Assembly: GCA_035084275.1 (NCBI GenBank)
Contig: CM068742.1
Location: 127,968,001-128,032,000, forward strand
Length of the DNA: 64,000 bases
Direction of reading: 5' to 3'
Origin: Hydrolagus colliei
Taxonomy: Eukaryota
The notes under the pieces: generated by a model
Told to the model about the DNA's origin: nothing
Seen by the model: the letters and a program-made list of their open reading frames with translations, nothing else
Database searches by the model: none
Shown: one piece after another, positions 466 through 41,930 of the stretch
Layout: each line of letters begins with the position of its first letter
Numbering within the stretch: position 1 is the stretch's first letter
Position numbers and translations under genes: made by a program

Positions 466-510
466 ATTGTGTCAAATATAAGAATTATTTACATTTTTTA
501 ATATAGAAAT

Positions 511-1501
511 TAGGGAACGGCGATATGGGAATTTTCTGGATATGGATATATCGGTTGGCTCATATCGAGATATACCGATATTTTCAGTTTTTTCGTACTG
601 CGCATGCGCGCGCACATCGGAGTGCGCGCGTGTTCCGGGTGCGCGCGCTTTCGGGGTGTGCGCGCATTCGGGGCCTATCTTCTCAGGAGGTAAATATATT
701 TCTCTCTCTGTGTCTCTCACTCTCTCCATCTCTGTGTTTTTCTGTCTGTGTCTCTCTATGTCTCTCTCCCTCTCTCCTCTCTCACATCCCCCCCCATCTC
801 TATCTATCTGTATATTATCACATCCACCCCGTCTCTCCCCCCCCCCCCCCCACCCCGCCATCCCTCTCTCGCACCCCCCACCCCCGTCGTCTCTCTCCCC
901 CACCACCCCTCCAGCCATCTCTTTCTCCCCCCGCCCCCCCCCCGCCGTCTCTCTCTCCCTCCCCCCCCAGCTGTCTCTCTCCCCCTCTCCTCCCCCCCCC
1001 CACGCCGTCTCTCTCACTCCCCCCCCAGCCGTCTCTCTCCCCCTCTCCCCCCCCACCCAGCCGTCTCTCTCCCCCTCTCCCCACCCCAGCCGTCTATCTC
1101 CCCCTCCCCCCAGCCGTCTCTCTCCCCATCAACCCCCCCAGCCGTCTCTCTCCCCCTCACCCCCCCCCCAGCAGTCTCTCTCCCCCTCACCCCCCACCCC
1201 CAGCAGTCTCTCTCCGCCTCCCCACCTCAACCCACAGCCGTCTCTCTTCCCCCACCCCTTGCATACCTGTATTATGTATTCGAGGACTATGTATACAAGA
1301 TGGCGGCTTTGCACCTCGGTCTGTGCATTGTGTATAGAGATGAGCATTCTGGGTCTTGTAGTTGATTGTGCTCGCATCCCGATTTTCTCCCTTGATATAC
1401 CGTTTTTCGATATATCGGTATTTTTAAAATGTCTATATCGGCATACCGATACGAAAATCATATCGGGTTTTACCGATATACCGATATATCGCCGTTCCCT
1501 A
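511..1501. mobile_element. Non-autonomous hAT-type DNA transposon (MITE-like), copy 1
   Basis: Perfect TIRs TAGGGAACGGCGATAT (511-526) / ATATCGCCGTTCCCTA (1486-1501). 8-bp TSD ATAGAAAT at 503-510 and 1502-1509. Subterminal CGATAT/ATATCG repeats; no transposase. Confidence 0.93.
825..1258 (+). repeat. C-rich minisatellite (~CCCCCAGCCGTCTCTCTC)n inside the hAT element
   Basis: Variable-length units of about 20-26 bp read directly; source of the Pro/Ser and Gly/Glu/Arg low-complexity ORFs. Confidence 0.9.
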
Positions 1502-1555
1502 ATAGAAATATATATACATGATAATCTCCACCTACGTTGACTCAGTAAAAAAGTT

Positions 1556-3207: not shown

Positions 3208-6200
3208 AAGACATTTCAAGGCAGTGCCTTGTGTTTTAAACCACAATATGTGCTGCACAATAGTGCCTCTTGACCAAGCTTCTAACTGTCACAGTTCCCA
3301 TCACCCTGAATGCACTATATGAACCTGTGCCCTCCCCATTACCTTCCTTGGTATTCCACCCCATCTCTGTGAAGTGTTGCAACATGTCCTATGTGAAGGA
3401 CGTTATACAAATGAAAGTTATAGTTTTTACCATATTCTTAAAATAGTTTTTTATATATAGTTTCGCAAAAGACTTTCATTGTAATGCAGTGACAGCTCAC
3501 CCTTTTGTTTCTTATGTGAAAGAGACTCTTTTCCACTGCATCCGTTCAGCATGGACTATTAGCTTTTACTATCCAAATGCAAGTTATAACAATAATCCTT
3601 CTAGTTGATTTAGCATCTTATCTGACTATTGAGGAGTCTCAAAGTGTTTCACAATATTGTGAAGTTTAGTGACCGTGTTTTGTAGTGAATGTGGTAGCCA
3701 ACAAACATTGAAGACATGAAGTTATTGACCAATTTTATTTGAGGGGTTGTTAATGCAACCTTTTGACTTAATTAAAATAGGGAAACTCAGCATAGACTAC
3801 AACTTGAACCTGTGTCCTCTGGTCTCGCACTGAACAGTGCCTTTTGACCACTGGGTCATTGAGGGATATGTATTTCGAACACCAGATTTTTTCTGTCTTC
3901 CTCGTAAACAGAAGATTGGAGAAGAGATAAGAAACTGCGTGCTTCTTTTTATAAATCTTTTTATAAATAGCTTTGGATTCTGCATCTGTTTAAATACTGC
4001 CCTTCACTGCAGGGATACCACTTAGTGCTGTTGCACTCTCAGCATGAACATTGTGATCACACAAGTTGATTGCAGACATCTCATATGAAACACTTTTTAA
4101 TCTTACACAGCCTGAATAATACATTACAAAAGCACCAGGTAGTCATCACCAGAAGAGCCAAAATGCTCTTGCATTTGAAGAAAATTTGTTAATGTATTCT
4201 TTATCAACAAATAAAGTACAACATAATTCTGCGTCTATTGTGCAGGGAGAATTTAATCACTCTCTTTTGATCTCAGGTAGACTTTTTTTTTGCATTGGAA
4301 GTCTCTGGATTCCGAATTTACGTGTTTATTTATGCTTATACAGATTATGGATTATACAGTGAAATACTGATTCATATAAAATTCATATTGCCATTGTCTT
4401 CAATAAAAATCTGCCTCTTAGAACACATATGACAACCTCTCTCCTCCCCACTCTCCGTTGCTCACTGTTCAACCCCATGCTTCTAAAGCTTTTCAAGATG
4501 AATCCTACATGAAGGACGTTATAGAAACAAAAGCTGTTGTTGTTGCTGTATTCCAGCTGTCTTCATGTGTGTCGTTGCTTTCTTTTTTGTTCCTTCTGAG
4601 TTTGCAACCCACATCAAACTGGATACATGGAGAGAAATTCCACCTCAATCTATGTTTACTGTATTAGCTGAGCATTTTACAGCATCCACTAAAAATATAC
4701 AGTAAATACACTTATATACAATACATCCTGTGAAGCATTTTGAGATGTCTCGACGACCTGTTAGGTGTGATATCAAATATAAGGATTATTATTATTATAT
4801 CTGTAATCAGGCCTGTTTATCCTTATCTGCACCTCTGTGACTGGCACAGAAGATCTTTTACAATAATGTAAACCTGCATGCATCACAGGCGAAAATATAG
4901 AGTTAGAATATGACAGTCATTTTGAAACACTCCTGCTGATTTGACTCTTGTGGGGTTGAGGCTCTTTTGAGCTATGAAATACACTAGCACATATTATTAA
5001 TTGTTGGGTCTATTTCCACGTTCTGCTAAAGAGCCTAATGATGCTATTTGTGATTTATAATGCTACTTGTGGCTGTGGAAGTGTTATTGACGGCAGAGAA
5101 GAGTATGCAATGGAGGCGTAACAAATGCGTGTCTTTTTTTACTTGTTAACACCTTTTGTTATTGATGAATATTGACATTTTCTTTCTTCAATGTGTTCAG
5201 TGGACATGTTTCAATAATGCCGATCCATGGGAATTTTACCCTGATTAGCAATTGGTTGGGAGTACACCTTGGAAATCATTTGCCTAAGGTTTTGCAACTG
5301 AGCCAAGAAGCTGTACAAATAACAAACATTCATAACGATAGAAAGCTCCTGTATGTAAAGCTGCAATTAAATGAGACGCCTTGTTAATACATATATTATG
5401 TATTTTTTCCCTGCCTGATGGCACATATGCACAATTATATATTGAGTATCAGCAGTGTAAGTCTAGGCTAGTTAAGAAATCTTATAAATGCAAGGTTAAG
5501 TCTTCAAACAACATTGCTGTCTACAGCACCCTGATCAGTTATATAGCATGTTCTTTGGCTATTGTGTGCACAGGGAGAAGGTTAGCACTCAGGGATCATT
5601 TTTAGTTAAAGTAAACGTTCCACTACAAATTTTAGCTCAGTAAAGTAATGGATGTTATGTAATAACAATGAAATGTGAAATAATCATATCAAAATGGTAA
5701 TAAAAATATTGTTACAGTTCATAGTGGTGCATTTGTGTATTTTATATATACATAACGTTCTCTGAGTTTTGAGTGATGCGCATCTTAGTTGATTTGTGCC
5801 GCAGAAACATTTTTTTTCAATTTTTACTAACGCAGCCAGCCATATTTGCAAAGGTTCCTGTGGTACCTTGTGGCAGCCTGATTCACAAAAAAAATAGAGA
5901 AAATCTCTGTGGCCTTAATTGGAGAAGCTATAAGGAAGAGTGTGTGCAATAAATTGCTAGTGAATGAAATTTATCAGTGCATTGAAACAAATTACCCACA
6001 TATCCGGGAGGAAACTGACATTCACAGAAATTGCATCTGCCAGTAGTTAAGTGTGGCCTCATGCTTTCACAGAATGGCTAAGAAATACCAAAATAAATGG
6101 TGTCAAATTTGGATGTTCAATTCATTGTTCGCCTCCATTTTCTCAAAAGCACTTTATCAGATGTCTGACACGAGCTTATTTCTTGCCTTTCTGAAGAAAT

Positions 6201-10734: not shown

Positions 10735-11375
10735 CTATTATCCTTCCTCCCCTACATCCATTCCCTCACGTACCACCTTCTTCCATCTCTGATACATCGC
10801 CCATCTCTGCCAATGTCTCACCCCAAAAGCCGCTGAAATCCTGGTCCACCCCTTTGTCACCTCTCGGCTGGACTATTCAAATGCCCTCCTCGCTGGTCTC
10901 CTCTCCGCTACCATTCATAAACTCCAGGTCATCCAGAATTCTACTGCCCGCATTCTTACTCTTACCAAACTCCGCTCCCCGTCTTCCCCAGTCCTTGCCA
11001 GACTGCAGTGGCTCCCTGTCCCGGAGAGGAACAATTTCAAGATACTCACTCTTATTTTCAAATCCATCCACCCCTCTGCACCCCCTACCTCTCTGACCTC
11101 CTCTCTCCTCACAACAATACCCGTTGCCTTCGCTCCACTCGTCCTTGTCCCCCGAATCCTCCACTCCACCATCGGCGGCCGTGCCTTCAGCCACTATGCC
11201 TCAAGCCTTTGGAACTCCCTTCCTCATGCACTTCACTTCACCTCACTCTCTTGCTACTTTCAGGTCTCGGCTAATGACCTTTCTTTTTGACCCTCCCCTT
11301 GACTCAGCCCAGGGATCCGTTATCTGAGACGCCGTCCGGCGTGGAGGGACCTATATAAATCCGTGTTGTTGTTGT
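10735..11375 (+). mobile_element. L2 LINE 3' fragment (frameshifted ORF2 end)
   Basis: Encodes LVHPFVTSRLDYSNALLAGL...IHKLQVIQNSTA and a GGRAFS motif; ends CTATATAAATCCGTGTTGTTGTTG. Confidence 0.9.
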
Positions 11376-14082: not shown

Positions 14083-15500
14083 CAATATACTGCAAATGCT
14101 GGAAATCTGAAACAAAAACAGAAATCACTGCGCACACTCAGCAGGTAAGGCAGCAACTATGGAGAGAGGAAAAGTGAGTCAACATTTTGGGTCCAAGAAC
14201 ATTTATCAGAACTGGGGCATAGTGGGAGGGAGAGGCTTTTAAGTACTAACAAAGAGGGAGAGGGAACAACAACAAAAACAAAATTACATTTATTTCACAT
14301 CGGGAGGACGTCCCAAGGCGCTGAACAATTAGGTTGGGACCCGATCAAGGTAGGGGTGGGGTGGGGGGGGGGGGGGGGGGGGGGAGTGAGAGTGGGAGGG
14401 TAGGGGTGTAGGAGAGTAGGAAAGGGAAAGAATTAGGAGAGCAGCAGAAGGCACAGTTGAAGAGGAAGGTCTTGAGACTGGCCTTGAAAGAGGAAAGGGA
14501 GGAAGATAGGCAAAGGGATTGCAGGATGGAGTTCCAACGTGTAGGGGCAAAGAGGCTGAAAGCCCAGCCACCAATGGTAGAGTGGTTCGGGCAAGGGACA
14601 TGAAACATGGCAGAGCCCACTGAACGGAGGGGATGGGCAGCCTGATAGGGAGACAGTAGGTTGGAGAGATAGGTGCAGGCAAGGCCGTGAGTGGCCTTGA
14701 AGGTGAGGACGAGGATCTTGAATTCAATCCTCTGGGAGATGGGGAGACAGTGGAGACGGGCAAGGGTGGAAGTGATATGGTCACTGAGCCGAGTGCGGGA
14801 GAGTACTTGAGCTGCAGAGTTCTGAATAATCTGCATCTTGTGAATGGAGGAGCTGGGAAGGCTGAGGAGGAGAGAGTTCCCGTAGTCGAGCCTTAATGTG
14901 ATGAATGAGTGGACGAGTGTTTCGGCAGTGTCAGCGGTGAGGCAGTGGCGGAGTCTAGCAATGCTGCGGAGGTGGTGGAAGGCAGTACTGGTCATGGTGC
15001 GGATTTGGGGGAGGAAGGATAGTTTGGGGTCAAACAAGACGGCCAGATTCCTGACTGGCTTCGAGATATGGCAAGTACAGCCTTGGATACTGACGTTGCC
15101 AGTGCCTGAGGTGCGAAGATGCTGACGTGAGCCAATCAGGAGGGCCTCCATCTTTTTGACATTCAGTTGGAGGAAGTTGTCCCTCGTCCAGGATTCAATG
15201 TCGGACAGACATGCAGGCAGGGCAAGGAATAGAAAGCAGAAAACGAGGTATTGGTCAGGAGATGATGGGTTAAAGAGGTGTTAATTTGACAAACAAAAGG
15301 GAGAGATTCCAACAAAACTGGAGAGAAGGGGTGTTAATAACGTGAAACAAAGATGGGATATGGTGGCCAAAGAACAGGTTGATAAGACAGTTGCAGAAGA
15401 AGGGGAAGATGAGCTGTCATGGCCTGAAATTATTGAAATCAATATTAAGGCCAGAGGGCTGTAAGGTCCCAAGCAGATAGATAAGGTGCTGTTCCTTGAC
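14083..15500 (-). mobile_element. Penelope-like retroelement 3' remnant (GIY-YIG C-terminus, UTR, pLTR with decayed hammerhead), split by an L2
   Basis: 15500->15417 translates VKEQHLIYLLGTLQPSGLNIDFNNFRP*, the E..(W/L)I..L.T..P.GLN end of the Penelope GIY-YIG endonuclease. 14177-14214 minus reads CAGTTCTGATAAATGTTCTTGGACCCAAAATGTTGACT. Confidence 0.8.
14265..15222 (-). mobile_element. L2 LINE 5'-truncated copy (ORF2 C-terminus)
   Basis: ORF 14345-15151: VRNLAVLFDPKLSF...AETLVHSFITLRLDYGNSLL...LPISQRIEFKILVLTFKA...GGWAFS...FKASLKTFLF; (GTT)n tail at about 14265. Confidence 0.95.
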
Positions 15501-20110: not shown

Positions 20111-21116
20111 TGGCGTCCATCGATATGGAAATTTTCCGATTTAGATATATCGACGGGCTCATATTGAGATATACCAAAATATCGATACTTCAGGGTTTTT
20201 CGTACTGCGCATGCGCGCGCTGCGCACGCATTCGGGGTACGTGCGCATTCGGGGCCTATCTCCTCAGGAGGTAAATATTTTATCTCTCTGTGTCTCTCAC
20301 TCTCTCCATCTCTGTGTTTGTCTGTCTGTGTCTCTCTCACACCCCCCCCATCTCTTTCTATCTGTATATTATCACAACCACCCCGTCTCTCCCCCCCACC
20401 ACCCCCCGCCGTCCCTCTCCCTCCCCACCCCCCCACCGACCCTCTCCCTCCCTACCCCCCCACAGCCATCTCTATCTCCCCCCCCGCCCCGCCATCTCTC
20501 TCCCCCCCCACCCCCCAGCCATCTCTTTCCTCTTTCCCCCCCCGCCATCTCTCTCTCCCTCCCCCCCAGCCGTCTCTCTTCCCCCCCAACACCCCCCAGC
20601 CGTTTCTTTCCCCCTCCACCCCCCCACCATCTCTCTCTCCCCCCCACACATACCCCCACCAACTCTCTCTCCCCGCCACCCCCCCCAAGCCGTCTCTCTT
20701 CCCCCCACCACCCCCAGCCGTCTCTCTCCCCCCCACCACCCCCCAGCCGTCTCTCTCCCCTCCACCCCCCCCAGCCATCTCTCTCCCCTCACCCCCCCCA
20801 GCCGTCCGTCTCCCCCTCACCCCCCCCCCCCCCACCCCAGCCTTCTCTTCCCCCCCCCCCCCCCCCCACCCCTTGCATACCTGTATATTGTATTCGAGGA
20901 CTATGAATACAATGTGGCGGCTTTGCACCTCGGTCTGTGCATTGTCTATAGAGATGAGCATTCTGGATCTTGTAGTTTAGTGTGCGCGCATTCCGATTTT
21001 TCACCTCGATATATCGATTTTCCGGTATATCAATATTTTTGAAATGCCTATATCGGCGTATTGATATGAAAATTATATTGGGTTTTAGCGATATATCGAT
21101 ATATCGCCGGACCCTA
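20111..21116. mobile_element. Non-autonomous hAT-type element, copy 2
   Basis: Right TIR ATATCGCCGGACCCTA (21101-21116); decayed left TIR TGGCGTCCATCGATAT. Perfect 8-bp TSD CTATCAAC at 20103-20110 and 21117-21124. Colinear with copy 1. Confidence 0.92.
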
Positions 21117-30144: not shown

Positions 30145-30478
30145 CCAAGTAAGGGAGAGGAGCAGGGTAAGGGGGAGGGCAGGAGAGAGTTAGGAGGGGA
30201 GGGAGAAAATTGAGAGGGCAGCAGAAGGCATGGTCAAAGAGGAGAGTCTTGAGACCGGCTTTGAAGGAGGTGAGGGAGGGAGTGAGGTGAAGGGACTGTG
30301 GGATGGAGTTCTAGAGTGTGGGGGCAGAGAGACTGAAAGCTCGTCCGCCAATGGTAGAATGGGTCGGGCAGGGGACATGGAGCAGGCCGGAGTCCGCTGA
30401 ACAGAGGAGGCAGGGAGATTCATAGGGGGACAGCATGTCGGAGAGGTAGGGGGCAAGGCTGTGAATGGCCTTGAAGGT
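30145..30478 (-). mobile_element. L2 3' fragment
   Basis: Minus-strand ORF TFKAIHSLAPYLSDMLSPYESP...HVPCPTHSTIGGRAFSLSAP; closely resembles 14430-14706. Confidence 0.9.
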
Positions 30479-30526
30479 TATCTGAAGGATGGTACATCCA
30501 ACAATGCAGCAAACCTCCAACTTAGA

Positions 30527-31518
30527 TCATTGCTGTTTGTAATCTACATCAATGATCTGGACTTGGGTGTACGGAGTACAGTTTCCAAGTTTGCAGATGA
30601 CACTAAGTTAGGGAGAATAGTAAACAGTGAGGAGGATAGTAGCCATCTGCAAGAGGATATAGACAAATTGGTAAAGTGGGCAGACACATGGCAGATGAAG
30701 TTTAATGCACAGAAGTGTGAGGTGATGCATTTTGGGAGAAGAAATGAAGGGAGGCAATATAGGCTAGATAGTACAATTTTAAATGGTGTAAAGGAACAGA
30801 GAGACCTGGGGGTTTGTGTTAGTGACTCGTTGAAGGTGGCAGGACAGGTAGACAAGGCTGTTAAGAAGGCATATGGGATACTAGGCTTTATAAATAGGGG
30901 TATAGAGTACAAAAGTCAGGAAGTGCTGACTAACCTCTATAGGACTTTGGTGAGGCCTCAGCTGGAATACTGTGTTCAATTCTGGTCACCACACTACAGA
31001 AAGGATGTGAAGGCATTGGAAAGGGTACAACGAAGATTTACTAGGATGGTGCCAGGATTGAGGGACTTCAGCTATGAGGAGAGGCTAGATAGGCTAGGGT
31101 TATTCTCTCTGGAGCAGAGAAGATTGAGGGGAGACCTAATAGAGGTTTATAAGATCATGAGGGGTTTCGACAGGGCAAATAGAGAAAAACTATTTCCACT
31201 CGTGGGTGAATCTGTGACTCGTGGTCACAGATTTAAAATAGTTTCAAGGCGCAGTAGAGGGGAGCTGAGGAGAAATTTTTTCACTCAGCGAGTTGTTCGA
31301 ATCTGGAATGCATTGCCTGAAAAGGTGGTGGAGGCTGATTCGATAACAACTTTTAAAAGGGAATTAGATCTTTATTTAGGGAGAACGGGTCTGTTAGGCT
31401 ACGGGGAGCGGGCAGGGCAGTGGGATTGAATCGCTCTTTTCAAAGAGCCGGCACAGACTAGATGGGCCGAATGGCCTCCTTTTGTGCCGTAAAATTCTAT
31501 GATTCTATGATTCTATGA
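30527..31518 (+). mobile_element. Young 5'-truncated CR1 LINE with an uninterrupted ORF2 C-terminal part
   Basis: LFVIYINDLD...SKFADDTKLG...KCEVMHFG...RPQLEYCVQFWSP...RNFFTQRVVRIWNALP, open to 31429; 3' tail (ATTCTATG)3. Confidence 0.97.
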
Positions 31519-33328: not shown

Positions 33329-34917
33329 TAGGGTCCGGCGATATGGAAATTTTCCGATTTAGATATATCGATGGGCTCATATCGATAGATATTTTGGGGT
33401 TTTTCGTATTGCGCATGCGCTCACGTTCCGAGGTGTGCGCGCATTCAGGGGTGCGCGCGCATTCGGGGCCTATCTCCTTAGAAGGTAAATATCTCTCTCT
33501 CTCTGTGTCTCTCACACTCACTCTCTCCATCTCTGTGCTTTTCTGTCCGTGTCTCTGTGTCTTTCTCCTCTCTCACATCNNNNNNNNNNNNNNNNNNNNN
33601 NNNNNNNNNNNNNNNNNNNNNNNNNNNNNNNNNNNNNNNNNNNNNNNNNNNNNNNNNNNNNNNNNNNNNNNNNNNNNNNNNNNNNNNNNNNNNNNNNNNN
33701 NNNNNNNNNNNNNNNNNNNNNNNNNNNNNNNNNNNNNNNNNNNNNNNNNNNNNNNNNNNNNNNNNNNNNNNNNNNNNNNNNNNNNNNNNNNNNNNNNNNN
33801 NNNNNNNNNNNNNNNNNNNNNNNNNNNNNNNNNNNNNNNNNNNNNNNNNNNNNNNNNNNNNNNNNNNNNNNNNNNNNNNNNNNNNNNNNNNNNNNNNNNN
33901 NNNNNNNNNNNNNNNNNNNNNNNNNNNNNNNNNNNNNNNNNNNNNNNNNNNNNNNNNNNNNNNNNNNNNNNNNNNNNNNNNNNNNNNNNNNNNNNNNNNN
34001 NNNNNNNNNNNNNNNNNNNNNNNNNNNNNNNNNNNNNNNNNNNNNNNNNNNNNNNNNNNNNNNNNNNNNNNNNNNNNNNNNNNNNNNNNNNNNNNNNNNN
34101 NNNNNNNNNNNNNNNNNNNNNNNNNNNNNNNNNNNNNNNNNNNNNNNNNNNNNNNNNNATCTAATCTATCATCACATCCCCCCCCGTCTCTCGCCCCCCC
34201 TTCTCTCCCCCCCGTCTCTTCCCCCTCCTCCCCGTCTCTCTCCCCACCACCCTCGTCTCTCTCCCCGTCTAACCTCCTTCACTCTGCCGTCTCCCACCCC
34301 CCGCCATCTCTTCCACCCCCACCGTCGCTCCCCACCCGTCTCTCTGCCCCCACGGCCCTCTCCCCCCCACCGTCTCTCTCCCCCCCCGTCTCTCTCACCG
34401 TCTCTCTTGCACCCACCCCCCGCCGCCGTCTCTCCCCCCACCGCCATCTCTCCCCCCCGCTGACTCTCCTCCCCCTCCCCCCGTCTCTCCCCCCCCTCCC
34501 CCCGTCTCTCCCCTTCCCTCCCACCTCTCCCCACCCCCCATCTCTCCCCCCCTTCCCCCCATCTCTCCCCCACCTCCCCCTGTCTCTCCCCCCCCTCCCC
34601 CTGTCTCTACCCCCCTCCCCCTGTCTCTCCCCTGCCTCCCCCTAATTCTCCCCCCATCCCCCCGTCTCTCCCCCCACCCCTCCCATCTCTACCCCCCCAA
34701 CCCTTGCAAACCTATATATTGTATTCGAGGACTATGAATACAATATGGCGGCTTTGCACCTCGGTCTGTGCATTGTGTATAGAGATGAGCATTCTGGTCT
34801 TGTAGTTCAGTGCGCGCACATTCCGAATTTTTCGATATTTTTTAAATGTCTATATCGGTGTATCAATATGAAAATGATATCGGATGTAACCGATATATCG
34901 TTGTTCGCCGGACCCTA
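33329..34917. mobile_element. Non-autonomous hAT-type element, copy 3 (contains assembly gap 33580-34158)
   Basis: Left TIR TAGGGTCCGGCGATAT; right end TCGCCGGACCCTA. TSD GTTGTTAC (33321-33328) / CTTGTTAC (34918-34925). Sits next to a CR1 tail remnant (33270-33315). Confidence 0.9.
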
Positions 34918-41629: not shown

Positions 41630-41930
41630 ATCAGTGGTTGGATCTCTCACCTTACGAGTGAGAGACCTGGGTTTGATTCCAGGCAGGGCAAAACTGTAGG
41701 CAAGTTTCCTTACTCGCACACCTGATAATAATCCCTCAAGAAAAAAATCAATAATAATTTGGTCATTTCAATTCACGACTGTTTGTGTGACACTTCTGTG
41801 CATAATTGGCTGCCATGATTTGCCCCAAATTTACAATCAATTCACTTTACAGAATATTCTGTGAAGCGCTTTGAGACATTTAGAAGACGTGAAAAACACT
41901 ATATCAAATGCAAGGATTATTATTATTATT
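41630..41930 (+). mobile_element. Near full-length tRNA-head/Deu-core SINE
   Basis: TCAGTGGTTG...CCTGGGTTTGATTCC (partial A box, B box), core, GCAAGGATTATTATTATT tail. Confidence 0.9.

Follow-up and report, generated by a model that had tools for sequence, protein, structure and literature searches.

Pack-type DNA transposons include Pack-MULEs and Helitrons with captured promoters. DNA transposons with factor motifs are also already known, and the hAT family described here, with its YY1/SBS block, adds a new member to them. In Xenopus, the Kolobok-T2/REM1 element of X. laevis and the piggyBac-N2A-like element of X. tropicalis are normally heterochromatic and can recruit p300 (PMC5655803). 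In mammals, MLT1J retroelements carry ZNF143/THAP11 SBS2 sites to which binding of ZNF143 has been shown (PMC3627581). In a literature search that covered few subscription journals, we found no paper on the present hAT family, or on a vertebrate hAT with NRF1, YY1 and ZNF143 words. In the account that we consider probable, the family is a non-autonomous hAT built from the ends of a parent element and a captured block and amplified in trans; its copies are methylated after insertion, and the promoter-type motifs that they carry are passengers.

The window, by which we mean the whole stretch of 64,000 nucleotides of Hydrolagus colliei DNA that was analysed, holds three copies of the family, all on the minus strand when read in the sense of the parent transposase. 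Copy 1 (511..1501) belongs to the young (TAGGGAAC) subfamily and is flanked on both sides by the 8-bp TSD ATAGAAAT (503..510 and 1502..1509, plus strand). Its TIR is perfect over 16 bp (left, 511..526, plus strand; right, 1486..1501, inside the arm at 1403..1501), and an identical TIR is found on the parent copies L081, L082 and L085. Copy 2 (20111..21116, TSD CTATCAAC, 8/8), whose left TIR has decayed, and copy 3 (33329..34917, TSD 7/8, with a run of N at 33580-34158) are of the older subfamily, which has the TAGGGTCC-type TIR. The TIR of the family starts with TAGGG, in agreement with the hAT-type (C/T)AGGG start. A non-autonomous hAT is what a sequence-only reading of this DNA had proposed, and the 16-bp TIR, the 8-bp TSD and the ends held in common with a transposase-coding parent bear this out. 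That reading had listed an NRF1-type word TGCGCATGCGC (599, 20206 and 33410, one per copy), a donor-like AGGTAAAT (688, with its GT at 690, 20269 and 33483) and YY1-site words (CAAGATGGCGGC at 1296, CAATATGGCGGC at 34741 and CAATGTGGCGGC at 20910), and all of these are present, in all three copies. It had also described CpG-rich arms in a CpG-depleted background, which fits the CpG o/e of 1.6-1.7 in the arms of copy 1 and 0.30 in the remaining window. Taken whole, the copies have CpG-island composition (GC 0.58 and o/e 0.81-0.87, for thresholds of GC >50% and o/e >0.6), but the GC comes from a minisatellite and the CpG largely from subterminal words: 13/17 of the arm CpGs fall in CGRTAT/ATAYCG words. 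A SINE-like repeat is also abundant in the window, where many copies lie in either orientation (e.g. 304-477, 2819-2981 and 41753-41923). Reverse-transcriptase-like frames at 30401-31429 (+), 14345-15280 (-) and 10793-11290 (+) are presumably fragments of CR1/L2-type LINEs; such repeats and the CpG depletion point to a vertebrate genome.

The parent was located via a genome search for the hAT dimerisation domain. It is a set of elements of 4.8-5.7 kb (L080-L087) that share these TIRs, have 8-bp TSDs and encode an intron-split transposase. The transposase has a zf-BED domain (E=1.5e-7) and a hAT dimerisation domain (Dimer_Tnp_hAT, E=6.7e-20); among named proteins it comes closest to a ZBED1-like one, with 42% identity. 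The right ~95 bp of the element (arm 1403..1501 in copy 1, minus strand) correspond to the parent 5' end at 82-91%, and the left ~155 bp (arm 511..668, minus strand, with CGATAT-type subterminal words and a GCGCGC array) to the parent 3' end at 77-80%; the plus strand of the window is therefore antisense to the transposase. Between subfamilies the arms differ at 12/138 and 11/92 positions (9-12%), and the young arms are nearer to the young parents, so that the arms follow the parent lineage. As the ends are shared and the arms track the parent in this way, the family is likely mobilised in trans by a ZBED1/Ac-type transposase with the same ends. CGATA/TATCGATA are sites of the BED proteins DREF and BEAF, which the CGRTAT/ATAYCG words of the element resemble (PMC7471704), and the BED domains of Hermes bind the transposon end (PMC10368747). 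By analogy, the CGRTAT/ATAYCG words may be transposase binding sites here, and binding of the BED fingers of the transposase to CGATAT-type words would explain the CpG-rich arms. A probe with the parent ORF gave no match for transposase coding in the block-bearing copies, and a coding role for the frames of the element was rejected, these being low-complexity frames only.

Several other observations were made on the parent family. A genome-wide zf-BED search gave 1859 first-look candidates; 28 of the best 30 loci belong to the parent hAT family, and internal-deletion copies are common among these best loci (L096, L120). In L081 (G000:C2:121485000-121494000, element ~3850-4832) a decayed older 3' end lies ~950 bp inside the one now in use, from which a purine-rich tract separates it; the parent family appears to gain new ends by uptake of flanking DNA. 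At G000:C1:150.15 Mb (L061/L062/L077), oppositely oriented transposase fragments flank several non-autonomous copies in what looks like a local inverted duplication. Finally, L291/L063 (G000:C6:29.44 Mb) has a single 667-codon frame with zf-BED and hAT dimerisation domains and no TIR by pattern, and is likely a domesticated host gene of ZBED1 type.

Inside copy 1, the NRF1-type word (599-609) heads a ~17-bp tandem GCGCGC array (599..669) whose unit number differs from copy to copy. The same word stands ~95 bp from the 3' end in 4/6 of the parent copies examined there, where it closes a GCGCGC array; the parent has this array at both of its ends. On sequence grounds, the word and the array are subterminal repeats of the parent 3' end. 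A donor-like GAG|GTAAAT (687..695, plus strand, 7/9 consensus) follows. The word was correctly placed by the sequence-only reading, but as a 5' splice site it does not rise above chance, since the window background has 2.1-2.3 donor matches of 7-of-9 quality per kb, and the element 1 per kb on each strand. The CT tract and the C-rich (minus strand G-rich) minisatellite at 700..1258 are the chief source of length variation among the copies. The composition of the minisatellite is G4-prone, as had been claimed: an absolute G4Hunter-type score of at least 1.5 is reached in 379/450 of its windows versus 439/59503 background windows. Beyond it lies the YY1-type word CAAGATGGCGGC of the young subfamily (1296..1307, plus strand), which in older subfamilies has T at position 4 and still fits CCATNTT. 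The variant CAATATGGCGGC at the YY1 site is not decay but the state of the older subfamily, being found in 15/22 old copies, with G in 0/22. Two further words had been missed: a ZNF143/THAP11 SBS2-like 19-mer, ACTACAAGACCCAGAATGC (1344..1362, minus strand), and, downstream of the SBS-like and YY1 words, a donor-like CAG|GTATGC (1261..1269, minus strand, 7/9). NRF1-, YY1- and M4-type words occurred jointly in 0/5000 dinucleotide shuffles, and singly, in segment-wise shuffles, in 445/5000 (NRF1), 57/5000 (YY1) and 36/5000 (M4), with patterns that were picked after the sequence had been inspected, so that the true surprise of the trio is smaller, yet real. The promoter-type words are to this extent more than chance.

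The arrangement of these words is a different matter from their presence. They had been read as one ordered cassette of NRF1 site, donor, G4 tract and YY1 site, which does not hold up: the NRF1/GCGC array is reversed parent 3' region and the YY1 block stands separately at the opposite end, so the cassette falls into two modules, one from each end. The Puffin model gives YY1 a directional effect immediately past the start and donors an effect from ~50 bp downstream; NRF1 and ZNF143 work in both directions in it (10.1101/2023.06.27.546584). ZNF143 placed downstream can act as a roadblock to transcription (10.1101/2024.05.13.594008). In the direction originally proposed, ~600 bp separate the donor from YY1, which is followed after 37 bp by the SBS-like word. 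Only the minus strand has a compact promoter-like order, and this points into the element. We also rejected the idea that the cassette is the transposase promoter, in its NRF1 part with the word at the parent 3' end and in its YY1/SBS part with no such block within 400 bp on the upstream side of the BED finger at any of 28 parent-family loci. The parent does have a 5' GCGC array ~90-150 bp before the transposase ATG.

The YY1/SBS block, of ~130 bp, is absent from the parent copies examined. In all of the 171 contexts counted (167 by pattern and 4 by eye) it lies between hAT arms, and no stand-alone block was found among these 171. In an older subfamily (L139, L142; 291 first-look candidates) a long parent 5' arm runs up to the GCGC array, with the block directly after it, and a diverged inverted copy of the block stands ahead of the 3' array (alignment score 79 versus at most 33 in shuffles). 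This 3' copy has a disrupted SBS word and keeps a YY1 core, the core being present in both diverged arms. L146 shows the long 5' arm but lacks the 3' block copy. The form seen in the window may derive from such elements by two internal deletions that would have removed the 3' block copy and most of the 5' array, and the junction at 670..679 (670-679 in copy 1) would mark the loss of the inverted second YY1/SBS block. The inverted pair, which in the older subfamily bounds an inner unit, is also what would be expected if the block were the TIR of another DNA transposon, now extinct, that had lodged between the hAT arms, with the motif likeness coming from the protein-binding ends of that element, and the parent family has itself a nested old end in L081. 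We regard this as possible but somewhat doubtful, given that no stand-alone copy occurs among the 171 contexts and that by eye no TSD surrounds the inner unit. It concerns the origin of the block only, and is compatible with the motifs being passengers in the present copies.

With family copies unmasked, neither 60 YY1/TBS-anchored loci nor 4 pattern hits yielded a host source of the block. Two non-family loci (L323 and L324) have a canonical SBS2 followed by the YY1 core GCCATNTT, and L324 additionally carries TCTCGCGAGA and a donor-like word; both are likely host housekeeping promoters. It is their shared order of SBS2 then YY1 that makes capture of the block from a host promoter plausible. 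The captured promoter module of the sequence-only reading can thus be retained for the YY1/ZNF143-like block, read on the minus strand, and has to be given up for the NRF1/GCGC array. The family SBS word fits a looser SBS2 pattern, ACTAYRNNNCCCR. It agrees with the THAP11 site ACTACANNTCCCA (PMC3627581) at 12/13 positions, with A in place of T, and so falls short of that site; the AGAC state is found in 77/81 copies. A canonical T-type SBS2 as the ancestral state was rejected, as five T variants are scattered over different subfamilies. The canonical ACTACANNTCCCAG has 571 occurrences genome-wide (reversed control, 86), and among the first 30 of these loci 10 reach the island threshold, 2 of them family copies.

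Whether the copies behave like promoters in the germline can be read from the decay of their CpGs. On one chromosome (C1), the first 44 young and the first 41 older ends were taken up, except those already sampled or adjacent, which left 40 of each. Unclosed copies, parent derivatives, block-less copies and three long-arm copies were then set aside, and the analysis covered 31 young and 22 old closed copies that have a TSD and the two interior blocks. CpG transitions were compared with non-CpG C>T/G>A changes, and exceed them 2.4x in young copies (65/1589 versus 56/3343) and 3.6x in old copies (95/1082 versus 51/2100). In the part with the YY1/SBS words the excess is 3.7x (young) and 3.8x (old). 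Parent controls gave 3.9x (exon 1, 8 copies) and 3.3x (last exon and 3' UTR, 14 copies), so the decay missing from DNA protected from germline methylation is present here. The young left arm alone has an excess of 1.6x (p 0.16), with a CpG rate of 0.051 that is not low. CpG loss is evenly spread, with 3 loss-free young copies versus 3.7 expected and 0 old copies versus 0.3 expected, and no overdispersion among the 53 copies (p 0.16 and 0.31) that would betray a protected subset, in a sample where a co-opted minority below a few percent is undetectable. This decay reports average germline methylation and not somatic or embryonic states. Because they mutate like methylated DNA, most copies are probably silent.

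The motifs are also not kept better than their neighbours, an outcome that the sequence-only reading had itself named as refuting its promoter proposal: non-CpG changes number 13/1006 in the SBS word and 7/530 in the YY1 word versus 45/3071 in the spacers of that block. Least intact is the NRF1 word (exact in 17/31 young and 7/22 old copies), and all three loose motifs are retained in 19/31 young and 7/22 old copies. Between subfamilies the block core differs at 1/103 positions and the motif-free donor and CT block at 1/90. The sole core change, from old to young, makes the textbook YY1 word and thereby hints weakly at selection. Of 54 flanks, none is island-like. It is in the light of these data that we hold it very unlikely that the element is a working portable promoter or enhancer, in line with what the sequence-only reading had suggested, with a sizeable share of its copies bound, open and initiating transcripts. 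The minus-strand order of SBS2-like word, YY1, donor and G-rich tract does resemble the host-like L323 and L324, the element contains four of the motif classes that the Puffin model uses (10.1101/2023.06.27.546584), and in Xenopus many new p300 peaks come from a Kolobok family (PMC5655803). However, the CpG decay equals that of the parent coding controls with no protected subset, the motifs are not preferentially kept, the donors are at chance and the flanks are not islands. In addition, in the direction first proposed YY1 stands ~600 bp beyond the donor, and the SBS-like word just beyond YY1 is in a position where ZNF143 can block transcription (10.1101/2024.05.13.594008).

The family is large. 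In the genome of 1.0 Gb there are 1346 exact young left ends and 4567 TAGGGTCC-type ends, related derivatives included, and the SBS-like 19-mer has 6807 exact occurrences among 7167 matches to the degenerate pattern. The 19-mer is retained in 27/31 young and 14/22 old copies, from which share we estimate 8,000-10,000 copies, or about 1% of the genome. The family contributes about 95% of the ZNF143-like 19-mers of the genome. Exact CAAGATGGCGGC occurs 1741 times, and among the first 30 of these matches 25 are the hAT family and 5 resemble host CpG-island promoters. For motif scans this is a warning, in that 6807/7167 SBS2-like 19-mers and most perfect YY1 12-mers belong to one repeat and not to promoters. 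The TSD is perfect in 48 and has one mismatch in 8 of 57 closed copies, and is perfect in 20/24 of a separate set. A MITE in the strict sense is short, uniform in length and high in copy number, with a typical limit of ~600-800 bp; here the copy number is high, but the length is variable and greater (0.4-2.0 kb, median 0.9-1.15 kb). Related ~1.2-kb derivatives (L048, L049, L059, L065, L066) have only the last ~85 transposase codons between the arms, a ~60-bp block and GCGC array directly repeated at both ends, and an outward-facing donor-like word in the 5' arm. Five closed, TSD-flanked minimal derivatives of 254-367 bp (L145, L147, L150, L154, L168) have neither YY1/SBS block nor minisatellite.

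Block-bearing forms are commoner than block-less ones (31/40 in the older-end sample). This numerical lead would be explained if the motifs were under selection at the level of the transposon, such that binding of host YY1, ZNF143 and NRF1 near the ends opens germline or early-embryo chromatin and helps the transposase to load. We think this unlikely. Block-bearing forms dominate both samples, the motifs lie 140-210 bp in from the ends, and three 5' lineages have the SBS-like word without change and all retain the YY1 core, as does the inverted partner. Yet between lineages the interior outside the motifs is conserved just as well, the 3' copy of the older subfamily has a disrupted SBS homologue, the SBS word is off the THAP11 site in 77/81 copies, and block-less miniature derivatives did transpose. 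A bolder proposal, which strikes us as quite improbable, would have the hAT capture a housekeeping-promoter fragment (ZNF143/THAP11-like, YY1, donor) and outcompete its block-less kin as host factors open its ends, leaving some 10,000 latent promoters in which most occurrences of these words in the genome would lie and which would wake, or titrate the factors, whenever methylation drops.

For the motifs as passengers, which we prefer, the following course of events can be suggested. A ~130-bp block with an SBS2-like word, a YY1 word and a donor-like site, probably from a host promoter and first exon or from another mobile element, would have been taken up next to the 5' GCGC array of the parent and then duplicated in inverted form at the other end. 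After the internal deletions described above, the arms would have changed with a newer transposase lineage as the interior was copied passively, and each copy, once inserted, would have been methylated and left to neutral decay. Some of our findings count against this account. The motif trio is beyond shuffle chance and the source of the block was not found in the loci searched; block-bearing forms are more numerous; the YY1 core is kept in both diverged older arms; the one core change produces a textbook YY1 word; and the CpG excess of the young left arm is just 1.6x.

The family offers a well-resolved case of a non-autonomous hAT assembled from parent ends, captured DNA and deletions. If binding aids transposition, or if a minority of copies is open, it would also allow a direct test of the spread of housekeeping motifs by DNA transposons in a non-mammalian vertebrate. 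Like other vertebrate non-autonomous hATs of the Ac/ZBED1-Tramp type, it has a short TIR with TAGGG, an 8-bp TSD, subterminal repeats and no ORF, and its ends are common with an element in the same genome that encodes a BED-DDE-dimerisation transposase; unlike them, it ranges from 0.4 to 2.0 kb, with an interior not derived from the parent and a YY1/SBS2-like block. With the Kolobok-T2/REM1 and piggyBac-N2A-like elements of Xenopus it shares being a young non-autonomous DNA transposon of thousands of copies with factor motifs, but those are of other superfamilies, carry T-box and homeobox developmental motifs and are described with chromatin data (PMC5655803), whereas the motifs here are of housekeeping type and predicted from sequence. 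As with MLT1J, a mobile element has spread an SBS2-type word through a genome, although MLT1J is a mammalian LTR element with ZNF143 binding and the present one a DNA transposon with a non-canonical, putative site (PMC3627581). In Pack-type transposons, as here, foreign DNA, possibly a promoter and first exon, is amplified between transposon ends; the present family differs in that no host source was found among the loci searched and in that the captured block once formed an inverted pair.
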